From a virus (Duplodnaviria > Caudoviricetes), in the IMG/VR virus record IMGVR_UViG_3300042860_004240, positions 17,066-81,065 of that record: a DNA stretch of 64,000 bases, one strand, 5' to 3'. This document shows, piece after piece, positions 3,509 to 25,256 of this stretch (position 1 is its first letter; each line of letters opens with the position of its first letter). The notes under the pieces are model-generated. The model saw only the letters and a list, made by a program, of their open reading frames with translations, searched no databases and was not told where the DNA came from. A program made the position numbers and the translations under genes.

Positions 3509-3709
3509 ATGAATTATGGTACAGTAAAATTTTTTAACGACGAAAAAGGCTTTGGCTTTATTGCCGTTGAAAATGGCGAAGATATCTTTGTCCACTTCTC
3601 AAATATTGAAGGAACCGGCAGACGCTCACTGGCTGCTGGTCAAGAAGTAGAATTTGAGATTGGTCAAGGCCAAAAAGGTCTTGAAGCTAAAAACGTTAAA
3701 CCAGTATAA
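3509..3709 (+). CDS. cspA: Cold-shock protein (CspA family)
   Basis: [15 protein letters not shown] (RNP1) and DIFVHFS (RNP2). Confidence 0.96.
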
Positions 3710-3970
3710 GCTTTACTATAAGTACTAAAGGGGAATAATAACATGCAAAAGAATCATTTATCTATAGCTACTTCTTTAGTCGACAAAGCAATTTCTGAAA
3801 TTTCTTCAAGAAACCTTGTTTCTTCTTCTGAAATGACGGATCTATTATTAGATATCCGTTTAGAAATTATGCTATTCCAAGAAACTAATTTATCTAAAGT
3901 TTAGTTTTTGTCCGATAATGTCATACAGTGATATGCCTCGGATAGAAACTATTACTAAAAAGGAAACACA

Positions 3971-5246: not shown

Positions 5247-5319
5247 GGGCCGGTAGCTCAGTGGTTAGAGCAGGGGACTCATAATCCCTTGGCCGTGGGT
5301 TCGATCCCCACTCGGCCCA
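5247..5319 (+). tRNA. tRNA with CAT anticodon (Ile2-like, or elongator Met)
   Basis: Acceptor stem GGGCCGG/TCGGCCC, AGCTCAGTGGTTAGAGC D-arm, GGGGA-CTCATAA-TCCCT anticodon arm; lacks initiator features. Confidence 0.9.
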
Positions 5320-5726
5320 CTACACCTATTGCATAAAGGAGAAAAAATAATGACTCAACCAAAATGGAACGACAAAGATGAAAATGGTGGTTATACTTAT
5401 TTTTATATGCACCACGAAGTAAATGATCATGGCGAAACTGAAGAAGACGCTGTAGCTATTCTTACTAAATACTTTGGTCCTGAACCAACTATAGAAGATT
5501 CTGATCTTGAAGATAGATGGTGGCAGGCCATAAGATGAACACAGCCCAACCTGAACAACAACCTTATATCAAACAGATGCCTAAAGGGGAATGCACTTAT
5601 TGTGATTTAGAATACGATAAGCCTACTGGCTTTTTCCCCTCTCACACAGCTTCCCCTAACTGCCGATCAGGCAATCATAACCATTGCACTTGTGATACTT
5701 GCTTTTAAAAACTACTAAAGGAAACC

Positions 5727-10543: not shown

Positions 10544-12388
10544 ATGATAGAATATTCCTTAATCCAAGATCAAGATAAATATGTTGCAGTTCGCAGCACT
10601 GTAAAATCTATGAATCTTGACCATGTTACTGATAAAGATCTTTCATCTTTTTTCACTAATTTTTCAAAATATGCTCACTTTGATACTGGCTTGTTGCCTC
10701 TTGACGGAACTGGCCTTTTGGCTTACCGGCAAGCGGGTAACCACGCACAAATTGTAGTTCAAACAGCTCCTGCCGTTTCTAGAATCTTATGGGGTGAATC
10801 AGAAGGTGGCAGAGTCCAAACATACTTTTTGGCTCAACCTTACAAGATATATATTGGAGATATACTAGACGGTAACTTTTATGGTGCTAGAATATTTTAT
10901 TCTTACAATCCTATAACATCTCCTTCTCAAGAACTTTATCATACTAATCTTCCAAACATGAACTGTAGAGGCTACAGGGGCAACGCAGTTGGCTGGGTGT
11001 GCTTGTATCATACTTCTGATTGGAGCAATATTCCTCTTGGAGAAAAAGTTGCAAGATTAATTGAAAGATGTTCTGGTGATGAAGCTTACAATGATCGCAA
11101 TATGAGCGAAACAGATGGACCTCGCTTTTATGCTATGAATAAAAAGCCTAGCTATTTGTCTAACCCAGTTGAATGGGAACAGAAAACTACTGAAGAAGGA
11201 TTTTTGTGGACTTTGAATGAAGGAACTTGGATACCAGTTCTAGTTCAAGATCAAGATCATCAAGATAAACATTACGAAGATGGCATTCCTTTAACTTTGG
11301 GAATGGCTTTGACTGGTGACTATCAAGCTTATTACACAGATAACATTAAAACTAAGCCAGTAAACAAAATAGCTCGAAAAGATAAAACATTTGATGAAGA
11401 TTATGTTTTTACTTTAGTTAAAAAGTCTTATGAACTTTCTAGATTAAAAGAACCAAAACCTGATAATCTAGATCCATATACTTATGTCCAAAAAGTTCGT
11501 GATACTCATGCTCTTTCATCTAATCCTAATGGTAACGGTAACAGCGATAACGAAGAACACGATGAAGATGAGCAATTCTTATGCATCCATTGTGAAGAGT
11601 ATTTTAGTTACAACGATGATAACCACACCGTTGTTGATGATGGCGTTCTTTGCCAAGATTGTTATAATGAAGAATATGTTTACTGCGAAAATGTTGGTAA
11701 AGATATTTCTATGCAAACAGGGAATGCTGTATATCTAGAAGAAATAGATATGTGGGTTGATGGTAATGGTCCTAACATAATTCATTGCACAGGATGTGGT
11801 CAAGTTCATTACAGCAAAAACGCTACTAATACCTTTATGGTATTTTTGAATTCTGAAACCCAAGAGTATGATTCTTGTACACAATGCTATGAATATTCTG
11901 CACAGCTTATTCAAGCAGATTGTGCAGTTTGCACTAAACCACTTCCAATGGGAAGCCAATATAGCTCTTATGTAAACTCTATATCTTTTATTGATCAAGA
12001 CACTTCTCAAGTCAAAACAGCTCACATGCACAACGATTGCTCTGTTAAAGCAGCTTCAATTGTTTGTCCTTGTGGAAAATTAAGACATGGTGAACCTTTT
12101 GGTTATGAACAAATTGTTTCTCCTGAATCCATTAAAGATATAGATTCATTTACAATGATAACTCTTAAAGATCCTTTTGATCCTTTAGCTTTAATTGCAA
12201 ATTATAATAATGTCGAAAAGACTCTCAATACTGTTCCATCCTGTCAAAACGTTTGCGCTTCGTGCGTATGCTTTGATCAAGAATCTATGTCTTACAATTA
12301 TGATCCTAGTAAGTTTGATTTTCAACATTATGAATCTCTTACTAGTTTAATTTCAAAAGCCCTTAATCAAGAACAAACACAATTATAA
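10544..12388 (+). CDS. Prokaryotic E2 (family D / PRTRC-B-like) domain fused to a Cys-rich multi-zinc-ribbon region
   Basis: 'QPYKIY...IFYS..PI.S..QELYHTNLPN...GWVCL' fits the LY..P.PN...G.vC pattern of Prok-E2_D; many CxxC in the C-terminal half; adjacent to JAB, E1 and Ubl. Confidence 0.65.
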   Translation: MIEYSLIQDQDKYVAVRSTVKSMNLDHVTDKDLSSFFTNFSKYAHFDTGLLPLDGTGLLAYRQAGNHAQIVVQTAPAVSRILWGESEGGRVQTYFLAQPYKIYIGDILDGNFYGARIFYSYNPITSPSQELYHTNLPNMNCRGYRGNAVGWVCLYHTSDWSNIPLGEKVARLIERCSGDEAYNDRNMSETDGPRFYAMNKKPSYLSNPVEWEQKTTEEGFLWTLNEGTWIPVLVQDQDHQDKHYEDGIPLTLGMALTGDYQAYYTDNIKTKPVNKIARKDKTFDEDYVFTLVKKSYELSRLKEPKPDNLDPYTYVQKVRDTHALSSNPNGNGNSDNEEHDEDEQFLCIHCEEYFSYNDDNHTVVDDGVLCQDCYNEEYVYCENVGKDISMQTGNAVYLEEIDMWVDGNGPNIIHCTGCGQVHYSKNATNTFMVFLNSETQEYDSCTQCYEYSAQLIQADCAVCTKPLPMGSQYSSYVNSISFIDQDTSQVKTAHMHNDCSVKAASIVCPCGKLRHGEPFGYEQIVSPESIKDIDSFTMITLKDPFDPLALIANYNNVEKTLNTVPSCQNVCASCVCFDQESMSYNYDPSKFDFQHYESLTSLISKALNQEQTQL

Positions 12389-12399
12389 AGAAGGATATT

Positions 12400-14091
12400 A
12401 TGTCCAAAAAAAATGAAATAACAGAAGAAAAAGTATATACTTTAGAAGATTTAGATTATTTCTGGCTTCCAAATGGTTCTCCTTGTTTCCTTGGGAACAA
12501 AGAAAACATTTGTGATATTATAGAAAATTTAGGTATTAATATTTATTATTTAATATCTGATAAATCTACTTTTAAAGAATATACTCAAACTAAGCCAGCT
12601 ACTTGGACCAATGGTACTCAAGTCCCTGCTACAACAACTAAATACACTGAAGAATCTCGTGAAGCAGTTATATTTAAAGTTGTTAAAAATATGATCGGAA
12701 GAACTATTTCAGTTTCTAAAGATTCATTAGATGGGACTTATGTTGGCTTAGAGCCGCAAGCTATATATTCTCTTCCTCCAATTCCTATGAGTATCGTCAA
12801 CAAACTTGATGAATTCTTTAGATTAGTAGAAGCTCAGCTCGGCACTGAATCAATTGTCCTTTTGACTTTTGATTCTGCTAATCCAGATTCATCTGATTCT
12901 TGGGGTATTTTAGTTCCAGAACAAGAGAATACTTCAGTTCACTGCAAGTATGACCCAGATTCTATTGTAGCTATAAAGCCATATCATCTTTCTATTGTTG
13001 GATCAGTTCATTCTCATCCTGGAATGGCAGCTTATGCTTCTGGTACAGACCATGAAGATCAAGCAGACTTTGATGGTATCCATATTACTTATGGATGGCA
13101 AAAGAATGTTAATAATGGTGCTACTCAATATTACGCAGAAATGCAAATGGCAGGAACTGCTTTTGTTCTAGACATTGAAGATGTTTTTGATCTAGATCGA
13201 ACAGTAAAAGATCCTGATCCTGAAGTAATAGAATGGGCTCAAAATGTCTCAAAAAAAGCACTGCCCCCGTATTCGGCTACGGGGGTTACCAAGGGACAGC
13301 AGTACCAGCCTCTAACTCAGCCAACTATAGCAAGTTCTCCAACTATGGCGACGACTACAGCTGGTGGGGTAACTAGAAAGATCACAGATCTTGATATCCC
13401 CAAAGATGCTGTTCTTGTTGTAGAAGTAGATGATAAATCTATAGATCCTAAATGTCCACTTTGTGATTGGGAAGTATCAAATGTTGATCTTTCTAATTGC
13501 GTTTGCGGGGGATGCAACAATTATATAGCTACTCCTGGTGACACAGTACAAGAAATTATCGAACTAGTTACCTACGCTTATGAAATAAACAATGAAACTA
13601 CTTACAAAACCTATGGTGCACGTCCTGCATTTACCGATATTTATTACATGTGCAAAGATGTTAACATGGAGTTTATGTTTCTTCATATTTATGGAGAAAA
13701 AGTTACAGAAGAAAGTATTGCAAAACAAATTACAGCAAGCGCTTTAAATGATGATTATGATAACCCTTGGAACGCTTATGCTGAATATACTCTTTGTTGC
13801 AATACTCATATAGATTCAATAGCTGAAAGTTGCCCTTGCAATCCGACAGTTACTGTTGACGACATGTATGATTTTGAACTTAAGTTTCCTCAATTATTTG
13901 TGTATGACGACAGCTCTAACTGTAGTGCTTGTCAAAATTATTTACAACCTACATGTACTCCATATAGGAATTTAATAATTGATTGGGCTAAAACTGGAGA
14001 AGATCCATCTAGTCCTTTTATTGAAACATGCAAAGACTTCGTTGCGTATGATTCTCTTTATGCGTACGATAACGATAGATATCTAGATTAA
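12400..14091 (+). CDS. JAB/MPN+ metallo-isopeptidase with Cys-rich C-terminal domain
   Basis: Upstream Glu (GTESIVLL) and GSVHSHPGMAAYASGTD, matching HxH-x7-S-x2-D. Confidence 0.88.
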   Translation: MSKKNEITEEKVYTLEDLDYFWLPNGSPCFLGNKENICDIIENLGINIYYLISDKSTFKEYTQTKPATWTNGTQVPATTTKYTEESREAVIFKVVKNMIGRTISVSKDSLDGTYVGLEPQAIYSLPPIPMSIVNKLDEFFRLVEAQLGTESIVLLTFDSANPDSSDSWGILVPEQENTSVHCKYDPDSIVAIKPYHLSIVGSVHSHPGMAAYASGTDHEDQADFDGIHITYGWQKNVNNGATQYYAEMQMAGTAFVLDIEDVFDLDRTVKDPDPEVIEWAQNVSKKALPPYSATGVTKGQQYQPLTQPTIASSPTMATTTAGGVTRKITDLDIPKDAVLVVEVDDKSIDPKCPLCDWEVSNVDLSNCVCGGCNNYIATPGDTVQEIIELVTYAYEINNETTYKTYGARPAFTDIYYMCKDVNMEFMFLHIYGEKVTEESIAKQITASALNDDYDNPWNAYAEYTLCCNTHIDSIAESCPCNPTVTVDDMYDFELKFPQLFVYDDSSNCSACQNYLQPTCTPYRNLIIDWAKTGEDPSSPFIETCKDFVAYDSLYAYDNDRYLD

Positions 14092-14110
14092 ATTAAAAGA
14101 TTGGAAAAAA

Positions 14111-14878
14111 ATGTCAGATCAAAATGAAACAAAACAACATCGGTTTATACTCATCGGTGCTGGTGGAATTGGTACTTGGTTAGCTGCTGGTTTAGTGCGG
14201 CTACTAGAGTGGAAGTTCCCCGGCTCTGCATTGATTATAGTCGATGGTGACACCTATGAAGAAAAGAACAAAGAACGTCAAGACTTTACAAAAATTGGCA
14301 ATAAAGCCAGTGTTAAAGCATATGAGCTTTCTGTTCAATTTAACAACACCACTATTATCCCTGTACCAAAGTGGATAGTAGGCGAAAACTATGAAGGCGT
14401 TGCAGATAGCGATTCTCCTAAAATTAAAGCTTCAGATTTAATTGCTGAAGGAGACGTTGTTTTTGCTGTAGTAGATAACTTTGCTGCTAGGAAAATTATT
14501 TTTGACGCAGCAACTTCTATAGCAAACATAGACATTTTTACTGGCGGAAACGATGATGATTTGTTTGGCAGCATTTATCATTATCAGCGTAGGAATGGAG
14601 AAGACGTTACTGAACATCCAGTTAACTTCCATCCTGAATACGAAAATCCACCAGATAAAAACCCAGGAGAATTATCCTGTCAAGAAAGATCAGAGATAGA
14701 AGGAGGAACGCAATTGCTTGCAACAAACATGGCAGTTGCTTCGTTCTTGCTCGGTCGTGTACAGAAAACGATAGTTAATTCAGAAAGCCCTACAGAAGCA
14801 GAGATATACTTTGACTTAGGTGTAGGTAAAGCTGAACCATATGATCGTTCACCTGTAAAAGTTAATGCCAATATATAA
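14111..14878 (+). CDS. ThiF/E1-like activating enzyme
   Basis: IGAGGIG, VDGD-x4-KN-x2-RQ, NKA, VDNFAAR, and candidate catalytic Cys in LSCQE. Confidence 0.92.
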   Translation: MSDQNETKQHRFILIGAGGIGTWLAAGLVRLLEWKFPGSALIIVDGDTYEEKNKERQDFTKIGNKASVKAYELSVQFNNTTIIPVPKWIVGENYEGVADSDSPKIKASDLIAEGDVVFAVVDNFAARKIIFDAATSIANIDIFTGGNDDDLFGSIYHYQRRNGEDVTEHPVNFHPEYENPPDKNPGELSCQERSEIEGGTQLLATNMAVASFLLGRVQKTIVNSESPTEAEIYFDLGVGKAEPYDRSPVKVNANI

Positions 14879-14902
14879 ATAATCCCAACAAGGAGAATAA
14901 CA

Positions 14903-15157
14903 ATGCAAATTAATAGCAACAACAATGAAAACGCATCAGGGGGTGTAGCAAACGTCCGTTTTGGCGTTTACTCACAAGCTAGCCCTGTTGCTGGAAAGAG
15001 CATCAAAGAAATTCGTGAACAGTTTTCTAAACTGTGGGGAATTCCTTCTGACGCTACAGCTTACAAGGGTAAGGACAAGATGGACGAAGACTACGTTGTC
15101 CAGCAGAATGACAACCTTGAGTTCCACCGCCGTGCTGGTGAAAAAGGTAGTCTCTAA
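14903..15157 (+). CDS. Ubiquitin-like (beta-grasp) protein ending GEKG-SL
   Basis: 84 aa with a beta-grasp-like pattern (...DEDYVVQQNDNLEFHRRAGEKG); strong AAGGAG RBS; directly after E1. Confidence 0.8.
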   Translation: MQINSNNNENASGGVANVRFGVYSQASPVAGKSIKEIREQFSKLWGIPSDATAYKGKDKMDEDYVVQQNDNLEFHRRAGEKGSL

Positions 15158-15169
15158 ATTTAAAAGATC

Positions 15170-15225
15170 GTGGGGGGATTTTAAAGATAACAATGCTTTA
15201 TTAAATCCTCTGGATGTCCCCCCAC
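15170..15225 (+). other. Intergenic stem-loop between the Ubl and AAA genes
   Basis: GTGGGGGGA (15170-15178) pairs with TCCCCCCAC (15217-15225). Confidence 0.6.
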
Positions 15226-15240
15226 TTATACCCTTTATGA

Positions 15241-16869
15241 ATGGAATATATGATACTCGAACAAATTAAATTAGGAACTCCACTATTGTGGATTAAAACA
15301 GAAGATATTGACAGGATTAATGACTTTGTAATTAATTCTAAAATTAGAGATTTTTATAGCATTATTCCAAATTTAGGTTTTTCCAAATTAGTAGATAAAA
15401 CCTGGAAACCAGTATTAGTAGATTTTCCTAATCCAGACGATGGAAGCATTACTCAAGACACAACATACGATTTTGTTGTTGCTTACCAGCACTTGAAGAA
15501 GACCAACGAAAGTATGTCTTCAATTGCTTTTATTCATAGCTTTTATACTGATCCAAAAAGCTTTCTTGAAGCATACGGCCCAGTTATGTCTTCATTCAAC
15601 CACTTTTATAGGAACTCTTTCTTTGCAGATGATGTAACCCTTCTGCCAATGCAAAATATATTTATTTCAAGTTTTGATTGCCCGGAAGAGTATGCTTCTA
15701 TTTTTAGTATCAATAATTCTGAGCCTTTATCTATAGGAGAAATGCTTGAAATTTTGAACCACTTTGCTACCATAAGCGACAATTTGTTTGTAGAAGATGG
15801 TACCGCACAAGATATTGCTCGCAGTGCATTAGGTTTATCTGAGTCTGTTTTTATTAATCTTTGTTTACTTTCTATTATTAAAAACAAAGTAATATCTTCT
15901 AAGTATATTTATGACACTAAAATGTCTAAAATAAAACAGAGTGGAATTTTAGAAATCATTAAACCTAAAATGACATTTGATAATATCGGTGGATTAGATA
16001 ATGCTAAAGATATTATCAAGAAGAATGTATGGTTGTGGAATAACCCAGAAGAAGCTAAGAAATTTGGTGTTCAGCCTATTAGAAGAATACTAATGGTTGG
16101 AGTTCCAGGTACTGGCAAGTCTGCTATTTGTGAAGCTACTGCTCATGAATTAGGTCTTGATTTGGCTAGAACTGGAGTCAGCCAAGTTATGAATTCTTTT
16201 GTTGGTCAATCAGAAGCCAACATGAGAGCTGTCTTTAACCAGATTAAAGTTATGGCTCCTTTGTGTGTTTGGATCGATGAGTTTGGTCGTGATATGTCAG
16301 GCGGTCAAAGTTCTTCCCATGTAGATGGTGGTACTACCGACAGAGTTCACGGTGAATTTCTAACTGGTCTTCAAGAACTTCCTGAAAATGTTTTTCTTAT
16401 TTGTGCAGCAAACCAGATTGAAAATCTAAAACCAGAAATGCTTAGAGCAGAACGTTTTGACAAGATTATATTTGTTGGTTTACCTTCACAATCAGAGCGT
16501 AAAGAAATAATTAAAATACATCTTTCTAATATTCAAACTGATCACAATTGGGATCTTGACGCTCTTGCTGAATCTACTACTGGATTTACCGGTGCAGAAA
16601 TAAAGTCTTTAATTAAAGAAACTAACTTCTATGTTGTTTCTTCTGAATTGCGAACTTTAAATACTAATGATATACTTATAAAAGCACCAAAGATGCGTAA
16701 TATACTTTGGAATAAGAATAGAGATTCTATTATAGGATTGTACAAGTCCGCTATTGAACAATGGGACTTTGCTTCATCTTCTCAACTAGAAGATGCCTCT
16801 AAAGTTATTTCTGGTAATTACACTTCTAGAGGTACAGCTAAACCTACGCCTCAAAAATCTAGTTGGTAA
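15241..16869 (+). CDS. AAA+ ATPase (Ycf46-like)
   Basis: FDNIGGLD, Walker A GVPGTGKS, Walker B VWIDE, SRH 'AAN...LKPEMLRAERFD', lid 'GFTGAEI'. Confidence 0.93.
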   Translation: MEYMILEQIKLGTPLLWIKTEDIDRINDFVINSKIRDFYSIIPNLGFSKLVDKTWKPVLVDFPNPDDGSITQDTTYDFVVAYQHLKKTNESMSSIAFIHSFYTDPKSFLEAYGPVMSSFNHFYRNSFFADDVTLLPMQNIFISSFDCPEEYASIFSINNSEPLSIGEMLEILNHFATISDNLFVEDGTAQDIARSALGLSESVFINLCLLSIIKNKVISSKYIYDTKMSKIKQSGILEIIKPKMTFDNIGGLDNAKDIIKKNVWLWNNPEEAKKFGVQPIRRILMVGVPGTGKSAICEATAHELGLDLARTGVSQVMNSFVGQSEANMRAVFNQIKVMAPLCVWIDEFGRDMSGGQSSSHVDGGTTDRVHGEFLTGLQELPENVFLICAANQIENLKPEMLRAERFDKIIFVGLPSQSERKEIIKIHLSNIQTDHNWDLDALAESTTGFTGAEIKSLIKETNFYVVSSELRTLNTNDILIKAPKMRNILWNKNRDSIIGLYKSAIEQWDFASSSQLEDASKVISGNYTSRGTAKPTPQKSSW

Positions 16870-16881
16870 CAGGAGAAACAA

Positions 16882-17508
16882 ATGTCTAATTTTGATGTAA
16901 AAGAATTTTTAAATGGAATTGATCAAGAAGGTTCAGATGAACTTAATCCAATTCCACCAAAGCAGTTTACCACTGAACTCTACAAAAAATGGTTTCGTTC
17001 AAAAACGAGCAGTGGCTTCTTAGCTATTAAGCCTTGGTTTGAAGGAATGAAATTTAAAATTGATATTGGTAAAACTGCTCCAGAAGGCAAGTTAATTAGT
17101 TCTACTAATGTTTATCTTGACGCTTTTGATTTTGCAGCTTATCTAAAGTCAATAGCAAACGGAACTGCAATTACCAATTATCCAGCCAATGAAAGAACTG
17201 GTATTCCTTCTCCTGAAGGATTCTCTTCTTACGGTGGTTCTGAGATTAATGGTAAGCCTGTTAGTAGAATCTTTAAGTCCCACTATTGGCAAAATGGTGA
17301 TTCTTTTGATCCTAACGCTTTTGCTTGGAAGTGTGGCCATTTTGCAGCACGCAAGTCTGAAAGTGGAGCTTTCATACCAGATTTAAAATCACCTATATCT
17401 GTTGATTTTATTAAAGTTACAAGACAAGATATATGTTCTATATCATATCTTTTAGATTTATCTTTAGCAGCTTACGTAGCAAACAACTCAGATTGGTATG
17501 AACAATGA
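16882..17508 (+). CDS. Hypothetical protein
   Basis: 208-aa ORF with AGGAG RBS in the Ubl operon. Confidence 0.7.
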   Translation: MSNFDVKEFLNGIDQEGSDELNPIPPKQFTTELYKKWFRSKTSSGFLAIKPWFEGMKFKIDIGKTAPEGKLISSTNVYLDAFDFAAYLKSIANGTAITNYPANERTGIPSPEGFSSYGGSEINGKPVSRIFKSHYWQNGDSFDPNAFAWKCGHFAARKSESGAFIPDLKSPISVDFIKVTRQDICSISYLLDLSLAAYVANNSDWYEQ

Positions 17509-24505: not shown

Positions 24506-25000
24506 ATGTTTGGGTGTACTTCTAAATCAATAACTGCTTTAAAAACTGAATGGAACGAAGAAAAATCTTATTCTTTTTTAAACTTTTTTATCACTTATCA
24601 AAACTGGTGCACTTACTCTACTAAAAAACTTTCTCATTCTGAAGTTCTTGTTCTATCTGACTTGTTTTGTTTGTCTCATGGTAAGGTAGCCCCAAAACAA
24701 GATTCTGAACTTTCTTTTTGGTCAGTTCATCCTATGAATATATTTAGATTTAAACTGTTAGATAACTTAGATTTTTCTGTTCTAAATTATCCAGACCCAG
24801 CTTATGACAAGCCCGGCTATATTGTAGAAGGCTGTTATTGGGTTAATGGTTTTATGTATCAAGTTTTAGAAGAAGACTCTAAAAACATCCTAGAATTAAA
24901 TTTACTAATTGACAAACCGACTCAACAGATATATGATTACCCTAATACCTTTATTTTAATCAACGATTTAATCAACGAATATATTACACTGCCTTCGTAG
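24506..25000 (+). CDS. Hypothetical protein
   Basis: 164-aa ORF; stop codon lies inside the downstream tRNA. Confidence 0.6.
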   Translation: MFGCTSKSITALKTEWNEEKSYSFLNFFITYQNWCTYSTKKLSHSEVLVLSDLFCLSHGKVAPKQDSELSFWSVHPMNIFRFKLLDNLDFSVLNYPDPAYDKPGYIVEGCYWVNGFMYQVLEEDSKNILELNLLIDKPTQQIYDYPNTFILINDLINEYITLPS

Positions 25001-25064
25001 CTCAGTTGGATAGAGCAACGGACTTCTAATCCGCAGGTCGTATGTTCGAATCATACCGAAGGCG
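24991..25064 (+). tRNA. tRNA-Arg(TCT)
   Basis: Acceptor GCCTTCG/CGAAGGC, AGCTCAGTTGGATAGAGC, CGGA-CTTCTAA-TCCG, GTTCGAAT. Confidence 0.95.
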
Positions 25065-25256
25065 CTATGAACATAGAAAACATAGAAAATCCAGAAGAAA
25101 TTCCAGAAACACCAGAACAAACATTTACAGAACGCCTAGAAGAATCTCTAGACTTTGTAGTAAATATGATGAATTCTGGGCAGCTAAATCCCGAAGATGT
25201 TTACCCTCCCGGTAGATACTCTGGGGATTAATTGCTAGATTTTATTTTAACAAGTT

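Follow-up and report, generated by a model that had tools for sequence, protein, structure and literature searches.

A conserved slippery heptamer and hairpin point to −1 ribosomal frameshifting and two isoforms in a phage JAB deubiquitinase-like gene

Introduction

In Escherichia coli dnaX, which yields tau and gamma, the −1 shift takes place on A_AAA_AAG with the aid of an upstream Shine-Dalgarno-like stimulator, and the −1 frame stops almost at once. A −1 shift in E. coli copA, a non-mobile gene, gives a short N-terminal-domain protein, CopA(Z), beside the full-length product, and phage lambda G/GT shows extension of a protein by a −1 shift, the zero frame ending just past the slippery site. 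Outside tail chaperones, dnaX and mobile elements, the −1 frameshifts on record from bacteria and phages are, to our knowledge, few. Here we analyze a 64,000-nt stretch of viral DNA (hereafter the window; positions 17,066 to 81,065 of record IMGVR_UViG_3300042860_004240, Duplodnaviria; Caudoviricetes), which belongs to an 81-kb record with an estimated completeness of 38%, and within it a JAB/JAMM deubiquitinase-like gene for which a first-pass annotation, made from the letters alone, had proposed a −1 frameshift. From comparison with homologs we consider it highly likely that this gene carries a programmed −1 ribosomal frameshift site, on the heptamer A_AAA_AAA and stimulated by a downstream hairpin, and the phage very probably makes both a short and a long isoform of the deubiquitinase-like protein.

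The site in the JAB gene resembles dnaX in its position at a domain boundary, in its A-rich heptamer of the X_XXY_YYZ type, decoded by tRNA-Lys, in the stem-loop that follows after a few nucleotides, and in a predicted shifted product that is shorter and lacks the C-terminal domains. It differs in using A_AAA_AAA, in having no conserved upstream element, in belonging to an unrelated gene family, and in a −1 frame that would add a conserved, selected tail of 27–48 residues. With copA it shares a non-mobile gene and a short N-terminal-domain product predicted beside the full-length one, whereas the heptamer, the stimulator and the protein family all differ. Extension of the lambda G/GT type is not found at the window site, where the zero frame continues for 277 codons, but is the layout seen in all six loci of a sister clade of JAB genes described below. 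The same heptamer with a downstream stem-loop occurs in the A_AAA_AAA_1 cluster of insertion sequence (IS) elements with orfA/orfAB, a proven frameshift configuration according to Sharma et al. (2014, PMC4066793); the IS shift, however, fuses two open reading frames (ORFs) into a longer transposase, whereas the JAB shift would shorten a phage JAMM peptidase of a ubiquitin-like (Ubl) cassette. Full-text literature searches, judged from listings, abstracts and passages of PMC4066793, turned up no published account of frameshifting in a phage JAB gene. We regard the site as a familiar kind of recoding in a gene family for which it has not been published, backed by comparative support that is unusually clean.

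Results

The frameshift signal in the window

The slippery heptamer lies in X_XXY_YYZ phase (TC-A AAA AAA G; Table 1): base 13251 is the third base of the TCA codon of Ser284, and AAA (K285) and AAA (K286) follow. The first-pass annotation had described an in-frame heptamer, a 6-nt spacer, a GC-rich hairpin in an otherwise AT-rich gene, and a −1-frame stop codon, and each of these proved correct in place and phase. RNAfold adds one G-U pair to the base of the stem, the −1 frame reaches its TAG after 39 codons, and the G+C content is 0.46–0.47 in 13200–13399, compared with 0.20–0.43 elsewhere in the gene and 0.357 in the whole window. A 56-nt segment containing the hairpin has a minimum free energy of −20.9 kcal/mol in RNAfold (z = −2.57), and 3 of 200 shuffled sequences were equally stable. 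The predicted isoforms are 325 amino acids (aa) for the shifted product (286 + 39) and 563 aa for the unshifted one.

The combination of A-run and hairpin is rare within the window. Among 129 A6[A/G] sites on both strands, only three are followed by a 40-nt fold of −12 kcal/mol or better, and two of these three are overlapping registers of the JAB A-run (−16.5 kcal/mol); the next best site after the three has a fold of −9.1 kcal/mol. Similarly, only 17 C or G runs of at least 5 nt occur in the 64 kb, two of which make the JAB stem. The stem has no T-run after it, in the window or in the homologs shown, and is therefore not an intrinsic terminator. The third site with a strong fold, an A6G at 62433 on the minus strand (−14.3 kcal/mol), looks more like a terminator-type structure than a recoding one.

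Conservation of the heptamer

Protein relatives of the 563-aa product numbered at least 430 in metagenomes. The 120 listed are 534–610 aa long and mostly unannotated, and the source names, where given, read "hypothetical protein"; a tblastn search of GenBank phage records gave no match to the protein. For comparison at the DNA level we combined 45 viral-contig loci, the best 80 of 169 confirmed metagenome loci and the window, and these 126 loci contained 99 distinct site regions, with protein identities of ∼35–100%.

AAAAAAA in phase and followed by G was present at all 99 distinct homologous sites, and the same signal was found in a 100th sequence (locus L176). The codon before the heptamer was GTA in all 87 cases in which it encodes Val and TCA in all 12 in which it encodes Ser, although over the whole gene in the same sequences GTA accounts for 22% of Val codons, TCA for 19% of Ser codons and AAA for 66% of Lys codons. 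K285, K286 and P289 are invariant in a 39-sequence alignment, but invariance of the residue does not ordinarily fix the codon in this gene: the invariant K135 is encoded by AAG in 63 sequences and AAA in 33, P207 by CCT (58), CCA (28), CCG (7) and CCC (6), and G215 by GGC (37), GGT (30), GGA (26) and GGG (6). Because the heptamer codons are invariant while invariant Lys, Pro and Gly columns elsewhere vary in this way, we conclude that the site is fixed at the RNA level. Two expectations attached to the original proposal were thereby borne out, namely that the A-run and the GC-rich hairpin be kept in related phages (A7 and hairpin in 99 of 99 site regions) and that synonymous variation at the site be reduced in orthologs (site codons fixed in 99 of 99, synonymous variation saturated elsewhere in the gene).

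Two relatives stand apart. Protein P0122 (284 aa, 59% identical) stops 14 residues past Lys-Lys with an off-pattern end sequence, which may reflect an insertion or deletion in the C-run or a genuinely truncated variant. A related contig (L139/L037) bears the label GVMAG ("giant virus MAG"), and its cassette and frameshift signal match ∼200-kb contigs from the same viral-contig scans.

Conservation of the hairpin

The 40 nt that follow the heptamer fold to between −10.3 and −21.3 kcal/mol in all 99 sequences, with a mean of −16.0 kcal/mol, compared with −4.7 ± 2.9 kcal/mol for 7288 background windows of the same genes, only 1.6% of which reach −12 kcal/mol or better. The spacer is 5 nt long in 35 sequences, 6 nt in 31, 4 nt in 15 and 3 nt in 6, and the remaining entries are inner hairpins of bulged stems. 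The stem is built from rare Pro and Gly codons. In the 12 codons after the heptamer, Pro is encoded by CCC or CCG in 173 of 222 cases and Gly by GGG in 106 of 171, compared with gene-wide frequencies of 11% (CCC) and 6% (CCG) of Pro codons and 3.6% (GGG) of Gly codons. Because these codons dominate just there, the invariant "Pro-Pro" of the protein alignment appears better read as the footprint of the RNA stem.

The 99 sequences contain 48 different stems on a common C-run/G-run core, and the pairs flanking the core covary (...GTA/TAC..., ...GC/GC..., ...AC/GT..., TA.../...TA). When the 3′ halves were swapped among sequences, the mean contiguous stem fell from 7.48 bp to 7.03 bp, none of 500 shuffles reached the observed value (maximum 7.31 bp), and the mean stability fell from −16.0 to −14.6 kcal/mol. 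The covariation is modest because the core is nearly invariant. RNAalifold predicted zero pairs on the ungapped MAFFT alignment of the 99 sites, since loop lengths differ and the 3′ arms are left unaligned, and it was replaced by the per-sequence folds and the arm-swap control.

Selection on the −1 frame

Beyond the heptamer the −1 frame is open for 27–48 codons in all 99 sequences, compared with a background median of 5 codons and only 2.5% of positions that reach 27, a length that is by itself weak evidence of coding. Ser (18%), Gly (16%) and Tyr (12%) are abundant in the encoded tail, which contains 4% Trp and follows the pattern S-x-P-P...G-G...Y-x-x-W-(Y/G), with GG near its start and Y-x-x-W near its end. 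Read in the −1 frame, every one of the 99 sequences has a Trp among the final 14 residues of the tail; translation of the same nucleotides in the zero frame gives such a Trp in a single sequence, and translation in the +1 frame in 21. The T of this TGG is the third base of a zero-frame codon, which ends in T in 99 of 99 sequences while encoding 11 different residues (A, L, T, V, G, I, P, N, S, D and R). Because the overlapping zero-frame residues are so varied, the constraint on TGG is not a constraint on the zero frame.

The distribution of substitutions was consistent with this. In 38 alignable close pairs, which are not independent of each other, differences in the overlap at −1 codon positions 1, 2 and 3 numbered 139, 90 and 179, so that the peak falls on the −1 wobble position, which is the second position of the zero frame; for the JAB domain, these pairs gave zero-frame counts of 102, 50 and 907. 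At the protein level, the 408 nucleotide differences in the overlap amount to 177 amino-acid replacements when read in the −1 frame and to 227 when read in the zero frame. Access to the tail was also restricted: in 70 of 99 sequences the stretch from the heptamer back to the first −1 stop upstream contains no ATG, GTG or TTG, and that stop lies only two codons before the heptamer in 64 of 99. With no start codon and so close a −1 stop, the tail is in such sequences reachable only from the zero frame. We conclude that the −1 tail is, as judged from these substitution and codon patterns, under purifying selection. The isoform sizes of the first-pass annotation (∼325 and 563 aa) stand, whereas its description of the short form as JAB only does not, since this form would carry the conserved, selected tail.

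A similar tail was not found at other ORF ends in the window, where the other matches listed are mostly short off-frame stretches (30–112 aa, most of them below 60 aa). A distant JAB homolog (protein P0264, 324 aa) has an in-frame Gly/Ser/Trp/Tyr-rich segment directly after the JAB domain, similar in composition to the −1 tail. We also considered the possibility that the tail is simply an ancestral in-frame linker, and dropped it: the sister-clade linker is rich in Thr, Ser and Gly, and Tyr makes up only 4.3% of it.

The JAB protein and the position of the site

The JAMM motif E...HxHx7Sx2D is complete, and E150, H204, H206, S214 and D217 are invariant in the alignment of 39 homologs. The AlphaFold2 model consists of two folded modules, at residues ∼10–283 and ∼330–548. 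Confidence (predicted local distance difference test, pLDDT) is mostly 75–92 over residues 10–260, with four 10-residue blocks lower, at 56–68. Foldseek assigned an MPN fold to the JAB module with a probability of 1.00 (E = 4e-5 to 1e-3), matching Rpn11 homologs, BRCC36, CSN5, AMSH and a bacterial Ubl-deubiquitinase complex; E is 4e-5 to 1e-4 for the Rpn11-like/JAMM matches and the bacterial complex. The window protein falls below the gathering score of the Pfam family Prok-JAB (PF14464; 21.5 bits versus a cutoff of 25), and a precomputed PF14464 match is present in many of its homologs. Action of JAB as an isopeptidase on the neighboring candidate Ubl is a putative role only.

In the C-terminal module, Cys 352, 355, 369, 372, 508, 511, 519 and 544 are invariant in the same alignment, and the module presumably binds zinc. 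In the 45 rows listed for the whole model, Foldseek named the JAB module only, which leaves the C-terminal module without an assignment. The last JAB helix spans residues 274–281, shortly before the slippery Lys-Lys at 285–286, and the −1 stop is reached at residue 325 of the zero frame. The overlap read in both frames therefore coincides with the linker predicted to be disordered (residues 284–327, pLDDT < 50), and the placement of the site by the first-pass annotation at the boundary between the JAB and Cys-rich modules is supported by the model.

A sister clade with the opposite layout

A search with the JAB module alone returned 1238 relatives (E up to 0.001), and among the 150 listed many are ∼400–480 aa long. 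Lys-Lys is not invariant in 30 of these ∼400–480-aa relatives. We obtained DNA for six loci of this sister clade (L127, L128, L129, L134, L159 and L175), with JAB ORFs of 400–423 aa. At the position homologous to the window site, an in-phase A_AAA_AAA occurs in L159 and an A8 run containing an in-phase A_AAA_AAG in L129; the A7 is not conserved, a C/G hairpin is present in none of the six, and the folds are −5.5 to −11.0 kcal/mol.

A different site is shared by all six loci. Their JAB ORFs (stops at 3674–3749 in locus coordinates) end 7–10 nt past an in-phase G_GGA_AAA (five loci) or C_CCA_AAA (one locus), and in each locus a Cys-rich ORF of 213–246 aa in the −1 frame opens 5–28 codons before the JAB stop and ends just before the E1 match. 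This ORF has no obvious start, and in two of the six loci it matches residues 463–553 of the window protein (tblastn). The two clades share the gene family, the cassette, and a predicted pair of isoforms without and with the Cys-rich module, whereas the signals differ: in the window clade, A_AAA_AAA just after the JAB domain would truncate the fused protein and add a dedicated tail, and in the sister clade, heptamers at the end of the ORF would extend the JAB protein by a −1 shift. Both layouts give one form without and one form with the C-terminal Cys-rich module. That the same short and long pair would be reached through opposite layouts supports the idea that selection keeps the pair of products itself.

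Sequencing runs

The gene was found in 22 lake-water DNA runs, which may include the one it came from, and small parts of it in two RNA-library runs. The contigs from the RNA libraries map to 13267–13561 and 12582–12732, and neither bridges the A-run. A contig would not reveal slipped forms that are rare, nor is a match in an RNA library proof of transcription, and these contigs are no evidence either way on slippage. The contig at 13267–13561, from a freshwater metatranscriptome, differs from the window at 10 of its 295 letters (∼97% identical), and its paired A-to-G changes convert two Asn codons to Gly in the −1 frame and two Thr codons to Ala in the zero frame.

Discussion

A mechanism and its alternatives

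In the scheme that we infer for slippage on the ribosome, its efficiency and the roles of the two isoforms, the GC-rich hairpin, which starts 5–6 nt downstream, would make a fraction of ribosomes pause while two Lys tRNAs occupy AAA AAA. Paused ribosomes would slip one base back on A_AAA_AAA and read the −1 frame for 39 codons, to give a 325-aa product made of the JAB domain and a Ser/Gly/Tyr-rich tail with the conserved Y-x-x-W end. Ribosomes that do not slip would give the 563-aa product, with JAB, the disordered linker and the Cys-rich module. The site would in this way fix the ratio of the two isoforms for a cassette of a Cys-rich protein, JAB, E1, a candidate Ubl and an AAA+ ATPase.

The same 325-aa protein would result if RNA polymerase added one A in the A7 run and the A8 transcripts were translated, and the evidence for selection on the −1 frame fits such transcriptional slippage equally well, the protein being identical. 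A homopolymeric A7 is the kind of run on which polymerases stutter, and PMC4066793 points out that genes avoid AAAAAAA in every frame, possibly because of polymerase slippage. However, the conserved hairpin sits 3–7 nt downstream of the run, a geometry that acts on the ribosome, and the phase of the run is strictly kept, with a preceding codon that always ends in A, which a polymerase would not require. Productive transcriptional slippage in bacteria usually needs runs of ∼9 or more, or a hairpin upstream of the run. A ribosomal mechanism is also made likelier than polymerase stuttering by the sister clade, because its G_GGA_AAA and C_CCA_AAA sites are not homopolymers but sites of the ribosomal type, and we regard slippage of the polymerase as unlikely. 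A further alternative leaves recoding out altogether. The A-run and stem could form a conserved RNA element of another kind (a pause for folding of JAB, an RNase site or a protein-binding site), and the −1 features could be by-products of the linker, since by the codon table a Thr/Pro/Ala/Gln-rich zero-frame linker automatically leaves the −1 frame open and rich in Tyr and Ser. Such by-products would not account for a TGG that never varies, its T being supplied by the third position of 11 different zero-frame codons, for a substitution peak at the second position of the zero frame, for the strict X_XXY_YYZ phase, or for a sister clade that attains two isoforms through another frameshift site. 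Nor is the stem an intrinsic terminator, as it lacks a following T-run in the window and in the sequences shown. A non-recoding element is, in our judgment, quite improbable.

An independent start for the −1 ORF is suggested by a −1-frame ATG at 13233 in the window, which would make a separate small overlapping gene of 47 aa (13233–13376), and an ATG occurs in the upstream open stretch in 13 of 99 sequences. Yet most sequences lack any candidate start before the heptamer or have a −1 stop two codons upstream of it, as described above, and an ATG lies within the first 12 tail codons in only 1 of 99, which leaves a separate gene very improbable. That an A-run and a hairpin came together by chance in a linker of locally high GC might be argued from the modest single-sequence z-score and the few shuffles that are as stable; conservation at all 99 sites, when synonymous sites are otherwise saturated, gives chance almost no weight.

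Several points count against programmed ribosomal frameshifting as the explanation. The frameshift is deduced from comparative genomics, and its product is a predicted one. The 99 site sequences are related, so that counts among them are not counts of independent events. In the window sequence taken singly, the fold is only moderately unusual at the z-score given above. The Thr/Pro/Ala/Gln-rich linker, whose codons cannot create −1 stops, accounts in part for a −1 frame that is open and long, and anchoring the tail comparison on its last Trp involves some circularity. Near the site the RNA libraries supplied a single contig, which begins just past the A-run. In E. coli, A_AAA_AAA is less shifty than A_AAA_AAG, which may not hold for the host of this phage. 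Finally, the first-pass annotation had likened the architecture to dnaX and IS elements, and this holds for the heptamer and hairpin but not for a dnaX-like upstream Shine-Dalgarno stimulator, none being conserved: a Shine-Dalgarno-like 4-mer of any kind lies within 30 nt upstream in 52 of 99 sequences, at variable positions.

Possible roles and significance

If −1 frameshifting operates as proposed, the Cys-rich module and the aromatic tail might, at a guess, target the same protease to different partners or substrates. A more specific proposal, which we put forward tentatively and consider doubtful, is that recoding hard-wires a set ratio of two deubiquitinase forms needed by the phage Ubl system, the tail being a docking peptide (GG-aromatic, Y-x-x-W) that recruits the form without the Cys-rich module to another cassette component, for example the AAA+ ATPase, while the Cys-rich form acts elsewhere. 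Were this true, it would amount to an Rpn11-on-unfoldase arrangement in a virus of bacteria, and the need for two forms would be strong enough that two clades keep them by opposite layouts. On this proposal, the efficiency of frameshifting could also respond to the state of the host tRNA-Lys.

For annotation, the results mean that hundreds of metagenomic phage genes called as one 560-aa "hypothetical protein" very probably have a second, so far unannotated product, which carries a conserved tail. For the biology of recoding they would add a well-supported case with clear dual-coding signatures, and the sister clade with the opposite layout provides a natural experiment. For phage Ubl systems, a deubiquitinase that would work with and without its Cys-rich module offers a handle for dissecting the cassette.

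Surrounding genes and other features of the window

The JAB gene lies within a cassette of five genes on one strand (Table 1). The same order was found in 75 of 98 related loci, and in the remaining 23 only part of the set is seen. Between the Cys-rich regions of the 614-aa protein and the JAB protein there is no significant similarity (best E = 6.4).

Table 1. Positions of the frameshift signal, the parts of the JAB gene and the genes of the cassette, in window coordinates.
Feature	Position	Strand	Basis or remarks
JAB/JAMM deubiquitinase-like gene	12400..14091	+	ORF; zero-frame product of 563 aa: JAB module, linker, Cys-rich module
Slippery heptamer A_AAA_AAA	13251..13257	+	Sequence; X_XXY_YYZ phase (TC-A AAA AAA G)
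Spacer, heptamer to stem	13258..13262	+	5 nt to the G-U pair, 6 nt (GCACTG) to the first G-C pair
Stimulatory hairpin (predicted)	13263..13286	+	CCCCCGTA (13264-71) / TACGGGGG (13278-85); 8 Watson-Crick pairs plus G-U pair 13263-13286; loop TTCGGC
−1-frame extension, predicted S/G/Y-rich tail of short isoform	13257..13373	+	Translation, 39 codons; reads STAPVFGYGG...YSWWGN
Conserved Trp codon (TGG) of −1 tail	13365..13367	+	Comparison of 99 homologous sites
−1-frame stop codon TAG	13374..13376	+	Sequence
Zero-frame interdomain linker, residues 284-327, predicted disordered	13249..13380	+	AlphaFold2 pLDDT < 50
Cys-rich C-terminal module, residues ∼330-548, long isoform only	13387..14043	+	Folded segments 337-548
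Surrounding cassette	10544..16869	+	Cys-rich 614-aa protein, JAB, ThiF/E1, candidate Ubl, AAA+ ATPase
Cys-rich 614-aa protein, called E2-like in the first-pass annotation	10544-12388	+	No Pfam family
ThiF/E1	14111-14878	+	Pfam ThiF, 6e-12
Candidate Ubl, 84 aa	14903-15157	+	No Pfam family
AAA+ ATPase	15241-16869	+	Pfam AAA, 3e-25

Four tRNA genes are present in the window, for Leu-TAA (2712–2802), Met-CAT (5247–5320), Arg-TCT (24991–25065) and Gly-TCC (43112–43185). None of them is for Lys, and the slippery codons would therefore be read by host tRNA. Between the candidate Ubl and AAA+ genes, a G6 run at 15172 and a C6 run at 15218 (window positions 15172–15223) could form a long hairpin.

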